A stretch of DNA of 64,000 bases, from IMG/VR virus record IMGVR_UViG_3300028412_000003. One strand, written 5' to 3'. Below are positions 22,626 through 23,760 of this stretch, piece after piece. The notes beneath the pieces were generated by a model. It was not told where the DNA came from. It saw only the letters and a program-made list of their open reading frames with translations, and searched no databases. Position 1 is the stretch's first letter. Each line of letters starts with the position of its first letter. Both the position numbers and the translations under genes were made by a program. This stretch comes from a virus (Duplodnaviria > Caudoviricetes).

Positions 22626-22661
22626 TATAAATAGATATGGTATATACTAGTAGTATTTATC
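22626..22661. promoter_or_regulatory. Face-to-face late promoters: TATAAATA (+, 22626-22633) and GATAAATA (-, 22654-22661)
   Basis: Both motifs are read directly; the + promoter serves the chaperone gene and the - promoter serves the tape measure/head operon. Confidence 0.65.
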
Positions 22662-22672
22662 GGAGGAAAACC

Positions 22673-23545
22673 ATGACAATAGAAGCACAGACTGCGGATA
22701 ATCCGCTAAAAAAGTATTTTAGACAACCAAAATTGTATGTTGAACTACCAAGTCAGGGTAGATTTTATCCAACAGGTGCTATAGAAGTACCGGATACCGG
22801 TCAATATCCGGTATATTCAATGACTGCTCGAGATGAACTAACCTTTAAAACTCCGGACGCATTATTGAACGGACAAGCCACTGTTGAAGTTATTCAATCG
22901 TGTTTTCCTAATATTAAAAATGCTTGGCAGATGCCAAGCATTGATATTGATGCTGTGTTAATAGCATTAAGAATAGCAACCTATGGTGAAGATCTTTCAA
23001 TAGATATTACAATTCCCGGAACAGATATTGAAAAAACATATCAAACAGATCTACGAGTATTACTAGATCAAATTAGTGTTTCGGAATACAACGAAGTAAT
23101 TAATTATAATGGTATGACAATTTACATTCGTCCGTTAACTTACCAAGAATTTACTAAACAAGCAATGAAAACCTTTGAAGAACAACGTATCATTGCAATG
23201 GTAAACAATGATAATTTAACCGAAGAGGATAAATTGGTAAAATTTCAACAAAGTTTTGCTAAATTAACTGATCTTACGGTAGCTGCGGTTACTCAAGGTA
23301 TATACAAAATTGAAGTTGATGGAGAAGTTGTAAGCGATACTGCTTTTATATCTGAATTTATTTCAAACGCGGATAGCGGGCTCTATACAGCCGTAACTGA
23401 TCATTTAGAAAAGCAAAAAGAAAATTTTTCAATTAAACCATTGACAGTAACTACATCTGACGAAGAAAGAACAGCAGGAGCTCCTGATACATTTGAAGTT
23501 CCTATATCGTTTGATGCTTCAAATTTTTTCGTATCAAGATCCTGA
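22673..23545 (+). CDS. Tail assembly chaperone / baseplate hub assembly protein (T4 gp26-like, lambda G-like), 290 aa
   Basis: KYFRQPKLYVELPSQGRFY...VYSMTARDE..FKTPDALLNG. The start is moved from 22637 to the ATG at 22673 because GGAGG lies 6 nt upstream and 22637 sits right at the promoter. Confidence 0.7.
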   Translation: MTIEAQTADNPLKKYFRQPKLYVELPSQGRFYPTGAIEVPDTGQYPVYSMTARDELTFKTPDALLNGQATVEVIQSCFPNIKNAWQMPSIDIDAVLIALRIATYGEDLSIDITIPGTDIEKTYQTDLRVLLDQISVSEYNEVINYNGMTIYIRPLTYQEFTKQAMKTFEEQRIIAMVNNDNLTEEDKLVKFQQSFAKLTDLTVAAVTQGIYKIEVDGEVVSDTAFISEFISNADSGLYTAVTDHLEKQKENFSIKPLTVTTSDEERTAGAPDTFEVPISFDASNFFVSRS

Positions 23546-23760
23546 GTTGGACTGTCGACCGGATCTTACAAGAGGTTACTAACCTTGAACAACAGTCCAA
23601 GCAACTCAAACATGAATTGTATAAATTATGTTGGTATATGAGGGGTTCTGTTTCTATGGAAGAAGCATGGGCTATGGATATAACAGATCGTCAAATAATT
23701 ATGAAAATAGTTGAAGAAAATTTCGAAACCACAAAAAAAAGTGGACTGCCTTTTTTCTAA
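23524..23760 (+). CDS. -1 frameshift extension (GT/gp51-like segment, 76 aa after FF); predicted fusion about 362 aa
   Basis: In-phase slippery heptamer T TTT TTC (23524-23530), hairpin AAGATCC/GGATCTT 5 nt downstream, and an open -1 frame to TAA 23760 (RIKILSWTVDRIL...LCWYMRGSVSMEEAW...GLPFF). Confidence 0.7.
   Translation, partial: FFRIKILSWTVDRILQEVTNLEQQSKQLKHELYKLCWYMRGSVSMEEAWAMDITDRQIIMKIVEENFETTKKSGLPFF

Follow-up and report, generated by a model that had tools for sequence, protein, structure and literature searches.

A slippery heptamer at the end of a gp26-family gene in an uncultured T4-related phage points to a short and a long protein made by −1 frameshifting

Tail assembly chaperone genes of long-tailed phages share a conserved −1 frameshift (Xu, Hendrix & Duda 2004, as cited in PMC9024508). 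For T4, Table 2 of Leiman et al. 2010 (PMC3004832) gives gp26 (208 amino acids, aa) and gp51 (249 aa) as hub assembly chaperones. Here we describe a gp26-like gene in a 64,000-nucleotide (nt) stretch of DNA, hereafter the window, from an uncultured lake phage that is a distant relative of T4 (IMG/VR record IMGVR_UViG_3300028412_000003). Judged by comparison with its relatives, this gene very probably makes both a short and a long protein by −1 slippage on the heptamer TTTTTTC close to its end (Table 1). An earlier note on the same DNA had predicted two such products, of 290 and about 362 aa, and the comparison backs that prediction. We know of no tail-chaperone-type frameshift that has been annotated or reported in the T4 superfamily.

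The lambda protein gpG has about 140 aa, and the E/E+E' frameshift of P2 takes place on T TTT TTG. Lambda G/GT and the window's gene are alike in that the heptamer for the −1 slip, of the type X XXY YYZ, lies a few codons short of the stop in a tail-assembly gene, and in that the two forms have a common N-terminus with a C-terminal extension in the minor form, as the comparison implies for the window. They differ in size, gpG being much smaller than the window's short form. Sequence or fold similarity to G/GT was not found: Pfam on the gene's product returned PF12322 only, and Foldseek of a structure model of P0011, a relative with both parts fused in one frame, gave no match in the Protein Data Bank (PDB) at E≤0.001. 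Nor is the window's gene adjacent to a tape-measure gene; the genes of PA5oct and 121Q are not either and stand alone by portal-side structural genes, and HTVC008M and T4 were the only cases in which gp26/gp51-family genes were seen closely upstream of the tape-measure gene. The lambda G/GT logic that the earlier note had recognized is an analogy only, confined to the nested short and long forms.

The 0-frame product of the window's gene is a member of Pfam family PF12322, T4_baseplate (residues 58–247, E=5.7e-11, 42.9 bits against a gathering cut-off of 24.5), and it matches the PHROG family phrog_150, baseplate hub (2.8e-13). By analogy with T4 genetics (PMC3004832) it may act in baseplate hub assembly. 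The heptamer T TTT TTC lies in the phase X XXY YYZ within the 0-frame codons AAT TTT TTC. The −1 frame is open from 23515, right after a TGA at 23512, has its first ATG at 23638 and ends with a TAA at 23758–23760. The predicted products are a short form of 290 aa and a long form of 286+76=362 aa, which is the same as residues 1–284 followed by 78 residues counted from the heptamer. The heptamer, the limits of the −1 frame, the ATG, the downstream stem with the TGA enclosed in it and the −1 stop within a terminator-like hairpin were all found where the earlier note had placed them. This last hairpin comes after the −1 open reading frame (ORF), 190 nt beyond the 0-frame stop, and its position was counted in favour of the frameshift.

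The heptamer by itself is not a rare sequence, as TTTTTTC occurs 27 times in the window and 38 copies would be expected by chance. When all 27 copies were checked against the list of ORFs of at least 100 aa, the copy at 23524–23530 was the sole one in phase on the sense strand. It is the comparative evidence, and not the heptamer as such, that rises above chance. A second in-phase TTTTTTC at 23751–23757 makes up the last two codons of the −1 ORF (...PFF), just before its TAA and in the loop of the terminator-like hairpin; it is probably without consequence.

The comparison set consisted of 31 IMG/VR loci (34–60% protein identity) and seven cultured jumbo phages of different genera (PA5oct, Atu_ph07, Phosso, 121Q, XaC1, Kaldavass and GAP32). 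In every relative that could be evaluated the heptamer is present in phase, with a −1 ORF of 73–79 residues when counted from it (78–79 aa in the metagenomic relatives and 73–78 aa in the cultured phages), and the 0-frame stop follows 10, 16 or 19 nt after the first T. Among 30 distinct sequences (about 28–60% protein identity, with PA5oct, Atu_ph07, 121Q, GAP32 and XaC1 among them; 175 nt examined), all seven columns of the heptamer were invariant in 30/30 and formed the longest invariant run of the stretch, with flanking wobble positions varying around it. The codon ahead of the T-run changes between AAT, ACT, GAT, AGT, GGT and CAT (Asn, Thr, Asp, Ser, Gly and His), and it always ends in T though C would be synonymous. 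On the 5' side of the heptamer it is the third positions of the 0 frame that vary most, and from 7 nt past its first base onwards it is those of the −1 frame. What the homologues share is the heptamer, in 30/30 sequences of the jumbo-phage type and 67/67 of the cyanophage/KVP40 type, and not the missing slip site and independent start with a ribosome-binding site that the earlier note had named as the opposite outcome.

Homopolymer runs are error-prone, and the change of frame could come from a sequencing or assembly indel, or from a recent frameshift mutation that broke the gene. The public sequencing runs that carry the window's sequence are DNA only, from lake-water metagenomes. Contigs from two other lake metagenome runs, belonging to other studies, are identical to the window over the slip site, so that the frame change is not an assembly error. 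One contig spans the site, and in the other run two contigs meet there, ending and overlapping over 23509–23530; the homopolymer may have broken the assembly there, or a strain variant may be present. The arrangement also recurs in the 30+67 distinct sequences described here, which include finished genomes of cultured phages, and we therefore regard artefact or decay as extremely improbable.

The downstream ORF may instead be a separate small gene, a free 'gp51 stub' with its own start or translated by termination-reinitiation, in which case the heptamer would be a by-product of Asn-Phe-Phe codons. GenBank annotates it in this way in P-SSM2 (gp51), KVP40 (KVP40.0327), HTVC008M (gp022), 121Q (gp595) and others. 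The pattern of conservation speaks against it. In an alignment of 21 sequences the extension is nearly gapless, with a single one-residue insertion in four of them, and it has the invariant residues F1, F2, R3, W37, M39, R40, G41 and N66. Conservation begins at residue 1, ahead of the sole conserved Met (Met39), and residues 1–38 are conserved with −1-frame codon periodicity. No start is conserved; the window and most jumbo-phage-type relatives have no ATG for the downstream ORF before Met39 and no Shine-Dalgarno sequence ahead of it. The frameshift lineages never use the synonymous options that would keep the protein and abolish the slip site (TTC TTT, or NNC ahead of the run). The starts given to the extension also disagree, both among gene callers (44–98 aa in profile matches) and among GenBank records, where the stretch is left blank or filled with small ORFs. 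Non-ATG initiation just past the slip site was considered and rejected, as column 4 of the alignment is Ile in 10/21 and Met in 1/21 and is not conserved. A tblastn search of cultured phages with the extension matched only Atu_ph07 and Phosso.

In cyanophage P-SSM2 and in KVP40 the gp26 gene ends with T TTT TTC GNN TAA and in pelagiphage HTVC008M with T TTT TTT TAA. The heptamer is exactly 10 nt before the stop in all 67 distinct P-SSM2-like and KVP40-like sequences, a set made up mostly of P-SSM2-like IMG/VR contigs. In these three phages the −1 ORF is the stub annotated as 'gp51 / baseplate hub assembly catalyst', and the GenBank record of KVP40 remarks on its likeness to the C-terminus of T4 gp51. 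The −1 reading of P-SSM2 from the slip site matches T4 gp51 residues 200–246 (BLASTP E=2e-6) as well as phrog_634 (2e-29). The window resembles these stubs in that the −1 frame comes right after the gp26-like gene and its reading starts with FFR; the heptamer T TTT TTC is common to the window, P-SSM2 and KVP40, whereas HTVC008M has T TTT TTT. The stubs differ by being 45–57 aa as annotated, with an ATG near the stop and a strong match to phrog_634, while the window's extension is longer and has no match to that family. Complete genomes in which the heptamer goes together with a single PF12322 gene are those of PA5oct, Atu_ph07, P-SSM2, HTVC008M and KVP40 and a 355-kb IMG/VR genome. PHROGs searches with the genes that follow 'gp51' in P-SSM2 and KVP40 gave no tape-measure assignment.

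Two further phages have an ORF in another frame at this place. In Rhodothermus phage RM378 (L058, about 2015–2245) the gp26-like gene ends on a T7 run, TCC TTT TTT TGG, and an extension-like ORF of 67 codons (PFFGISYDSEEE...) lies in the +1 and not in the −1 frame; this could be +1 or −2 recoding, slippage of the RNA polymerase or a homopolymer error in the record. In Sphingomonas phage PAU (L059, about 2150–2482) the PF12322 gene is followed by a +1-frame ORF of 72 codons, NFLKERMM..., with AAGGAG a few bases 5' of ATG ATG. The tail of PAU may be a separately initiated gene, and it counts among the points for that reading of the downstream ORF.

Long forms that need no frameshift came to light in a search of 1.84 billion representative proteins with a profile of the extension (E≤0.001). 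The 480 matches were mostly orphan ORFs of 44–98 aa, and about 20 of the best 150 were proteins of 319–351 aa with a gp26-like domain and the extension in frame, joined as ...LDxxxxFRxKIL; such fusions argue against a separate small gene. Only two longer proteins bearing the extension came out of a word-indexed search, fewer than from the profile search. In the fused loci for which DNA was examined, a short PF12322 paralogue directly precedes the long gene in five of five. In the four complete loci it ends 2–4 residues beyond the conserved FF (NF in L045); the fifth, L042, is a short contig with nothing of the upstream gene but its C-terminal end, and there the ending after FF is looser. The short genes of L041 and L044 retain an in-phase TTTTTTC with the −1 frame closed at once, and the two-gene lineages in general vary or lose the slip site. 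In the two longer tandem-locus contigs the flanking genes are like those of the window.

A quick maximum-likelihood tree, rooted on T4 gp26 and gp51, placed the frameshift-type genes as basal and paraphyletic, and the in-frame long forms in one clade (95), with three of four tandem short forms nested within the window's subclade (99); the distant root is its weak point. Taken at face value, the tree would make the slip the older state in this clade, with its loss accompanying the possession of two genes. The model of the fused relative P0011 (mean predicted local distance difference test, pLDDT, 91; predicted template modelling score, pTM, 0.87) shows the extension as four helices, and its matches in BFVD, listed without aligned ranges, are gp26/gp51-type 'baseplate hub' proteins of many myoviruses. 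Pairs of cysteines, CxxC ... CxxC, invariant in the alignment of in-frame long forms, are present in the long forms, T4 gp26 and T4 gp51, which suggests a zinc site; all four are lost in the window's protein and its closest relatives.

T4 itself has two PF12322 genes. Both gp26 and gp51 match the family end to end (8.8e-64 and 3.9e-52) and are therefore paralogues, and gp51 is about 48 residues longer at the C-terminus. Gene 51 is transcribed divergently from gene 26, which gene 25 follows, so that read-through from 26 into 51 is impossible. The end of gp26, ...EFFELL, coincides with the end of the window's 0-frame product, ...NFFVSRS, and in gene 26 (L035:2803–3429) the two Phe codons are TTC TTT, which is not slippery and is the synonymous order never used in the frameshift lineages. 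T4 and the window are alike in the PF12322 family, in a short form that ends just past a conserved FF and in a long form, predicted for the window, that runs on into a helical tail. They differ in that T4 has two divergent full-length genes without a frameshift and the window has one gene, and the window's extension has about 76 residues against about 48 in gp51. For T4 an internal-start product, gp26', is annotated, made of the last 95 residues of gp26, and no counterpart was seen in the window. The earlier note was right that T4 genes 26 and 51 are separate, but gp51 corresponds to the whole long product and not to the extension alone.

The earlier note had also called the extension gp51-like. 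This fits the −1 ORFs of P-SSM2, KVP40 and HTVC008M, which are annotated gp51, and above all that of P-SSM2 with its match to the gp51 tail; the gp51 link of the window's own extension is weaker. In hhalign the window's extension aligned to the gp51 tail with a score of 24.3, as compared to 10.3±2.0 for column shuffles, of which 0/300 reached it (P about 4e-4). The alignment is colinear, with FR.KLI against FK.LL, EEI against DEI and ...ER..I..II against ...ER..L.LI. With whole gp51 as an alignment the extension profile gave E=0.015, and with the single P-SSM2 extension the FFR... part alone aligned. When profiles were compared to single T4 sequences, and when whole-length profiles were used, hhalign aligned the N-terminal domain alone (prob 47–76%), and BLASTP of the window's proteins against T4 gp26 gave no match. 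Precomputed annotations of T4-type gp51 proteins include the Pfam family PF28602, which probably models the gp51 tail.

Several observations weigh against a frameshift at this site. The window's extension has no direct match to a Pfam or PHROG family, and the 21 extensions likewise gave no credible family in either. The domain has the FF dipeptide as a conserved end in any case, so coding accounts for part of the T-run. Some lineages have an ATG that overlaps the 0-frame stop or lies just past it (TAATG in KVP40 and 121Q; ATGA in Atu_ph07, Phosso and L012; an ATG 2 nt after the TAA in cyanophages), and coupled re-initiation there could yield a free small protein; independent translation of this kind does not suit the window, where Met39 is the first start codon. 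The RNA structure is uneven as well. The hairpin of the window, formed by stems 23536–23542 and 23561–23567 with an inner stem of 5 bp, has a minimum free energy of −11.7 kcal/mol and is no stabler than shuffled sequence (z=−0.55), and in 8 of 19 folded sequences no stable hairpin was found (z −0.8 to +1.1), so that no universal stimulator was identified. Set against the conservation of residues 1–38 and of the heptamer's codons, the stop-start overlaps leave a separate small gene as a quite improbable account of the downstream ORF.

That no universal RNA stimulator was found also bears on transcriptional slippage, by which the RNA polymerase would add one U in the T6 run and a minority of mRNAs would have the whole 362-aa fusion in a single frame. 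Both mechanisms would yield an identical protein, and the comparative data do not tell them apart; the site is moreover a homopolymer run, of seven T in HTVC008M and RM378. Efficient transcriptional slippage in bacterial and insertion sequence (IS) element cases uses runs of about 8–9, for which six T's are short. In addition, the run is kept at six T plus C in the exact X XXY YYZ phase in 97 distinct sequences and is not lengthened. Among the 19 folded sequences, hairpins with z≤−2 were obtained in 8, far above chance, three of these stems beginning more than 10 nt past the heptamer. At the spacing seen in the window the hairpins of L002, L017, L022 and PA5oct are strong (z −3.2 to −4.4) and those of L009 and L020 weaker (z about −1.6). 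We consider transcriptional slippage improbable.

The preferred reading remains −1 slippage on TTTTTTC during translation. Most ribosomes would read AAT TTT TTC GTA TCA AGA TCC TGA and release the 290-aa protein. In a minority, tRNA-Phe in the P and A sites on UUU UUC would slip back by one base to UUU UUU, and these ribosomes would go on in the −1 frame (CGU AUC AAG ...) for 76 more codons to give the long form of about 362 aa. The slip may be enhanced by the 0-frame stop close by and, in many lineages, by a hairpin 5–6 nt downstream. The extra helical domain of the long form would correspond to the C-terminal tail of T4 gp51, and the two nested proteins may both act in assembly of the baseplate hub, possibly also of the tape measure, in a ratio set by slip efficiency as in lambda G/GT. 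We infer the ribosomal nature of the shift, the slip efficiency and the chaperone function; the last, together with the ratio logic, because the T4 literature lists gp26 and gp51 as hub assembly chaperones (PMC3004832) and because the T4 and HTVC008M genes lie near the tape-measure gene.

The gp26-like gene is an isolated gene on the + strand, with a divergent gene for a structural protein of 877 aa on one side and, on the other, the terminator followed by a convergent ORF of 267 aa. The gene order agrees with that of the jumbo phages PA5oct and 121Q, where the gp26-like gene likewise stands alone and divergent from structural-protein/portal genes. A gp55-like late sigma factor is encoded at 28735–29604, and the window further has genes for a T4-type portal, a major head protein, a PDDEXK/RusA-like nuclease, gp46/47-like nucleases and a gp5-like hub-lysozyme. 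The portal, head, nuclease, gp55-like and gp5-like neighbours indicate that the window's phage is related to T4. A DNA search of the locus against cultured phages gave no match. The features of the locus and of the tandem loci are collected in Table 1.

Table 1. Positions of the features of the gp26-like locus in the window and of the tandem loci in other contigs
Feature	Position	Strand	Basis
Candidate T4-type late promoter TATAAATA	22626..22633	+	sequence; use as promoter inferred from T4 late promoters
Shine-Dalgarno GGAGG, 6 nt 5' of ATG	22662..22666	+	sequence
0-frame ORF, gp26/gp51-family baseplate-hub assembly protein, short form 290 aa, C-terminus ...NFFVSRS	22673..23545	+	translation
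Slippery heptamer T TTT TTC (X XXY YYZ), in phase	23524..23530	+	sequence and conservation
−1 coding stretch, 78 residues from heptamer (FFRIKIL...KKSGLPFF) plus TAA	23524..23760	+	alignment, periodicity, in-frame fusions
Hairpin 5 nt 3' of heptamer, TGA enclosed; possible stimulator	23536..23567	+	folding
0-frame stop TGA, 4 codons past heptamer	23543..23545	+	sequence
Terminator-like hairpin (A-run, 17-pair stem, T-run), −1 stop in loop	23735..23775	.	sequence
Tandem short and long PF12322 genes, no frameshift	L041:820-2744; L043:4931-6914; L044:411-2389; L045:1959-3790; L042 partial		

In a literature search no paper was found that describes the gp26-family frameshift; coverage of subscription journals was mostly lacking and an earlier mention is possible. 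The genome papers of PA5oct and Atu_ph07 do not mention a frameshift. Beyond the window, the data lean somewhat towards a wider reading, in which a −1 frameshift at the end of the gp26-family gene is the ancestral state of the T4 superfamily as a whole (Rak2-, PA5oct- and Atu_ph07-like jumbo phages, cyanophages, pelagiphages and KVP40) and is the T4-side counterpart of G/GT, making a short and a long hub/tape-measure chaperone in a fixed ratio. Recoding would then have given way to two genes independently in the T-even lineage and in one uncultured lineage, and hundreds of genome records would contain, as 'gp51 stubs', wrongly annotated halves of a trans-frame protein.

If this is true, the conserved tail-chaperone frameshift of long-tailed phages would extend to the T4 superfamily and to an unrelated protein family. 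It would also account for the puzzling 'gp51' ORFs of 45–57 aa in cyanophages and KVP40, and many genome annotations would have to be corrected. The presence of two paralogous hub-assembly genes, 26 and 51, in T4 would have a simple explanation, and both forms would be needed. The series from one slipping gene, through tandem short and long genes, to divergent paralogues would show recoding and gene duplication as interchangeable solutions.

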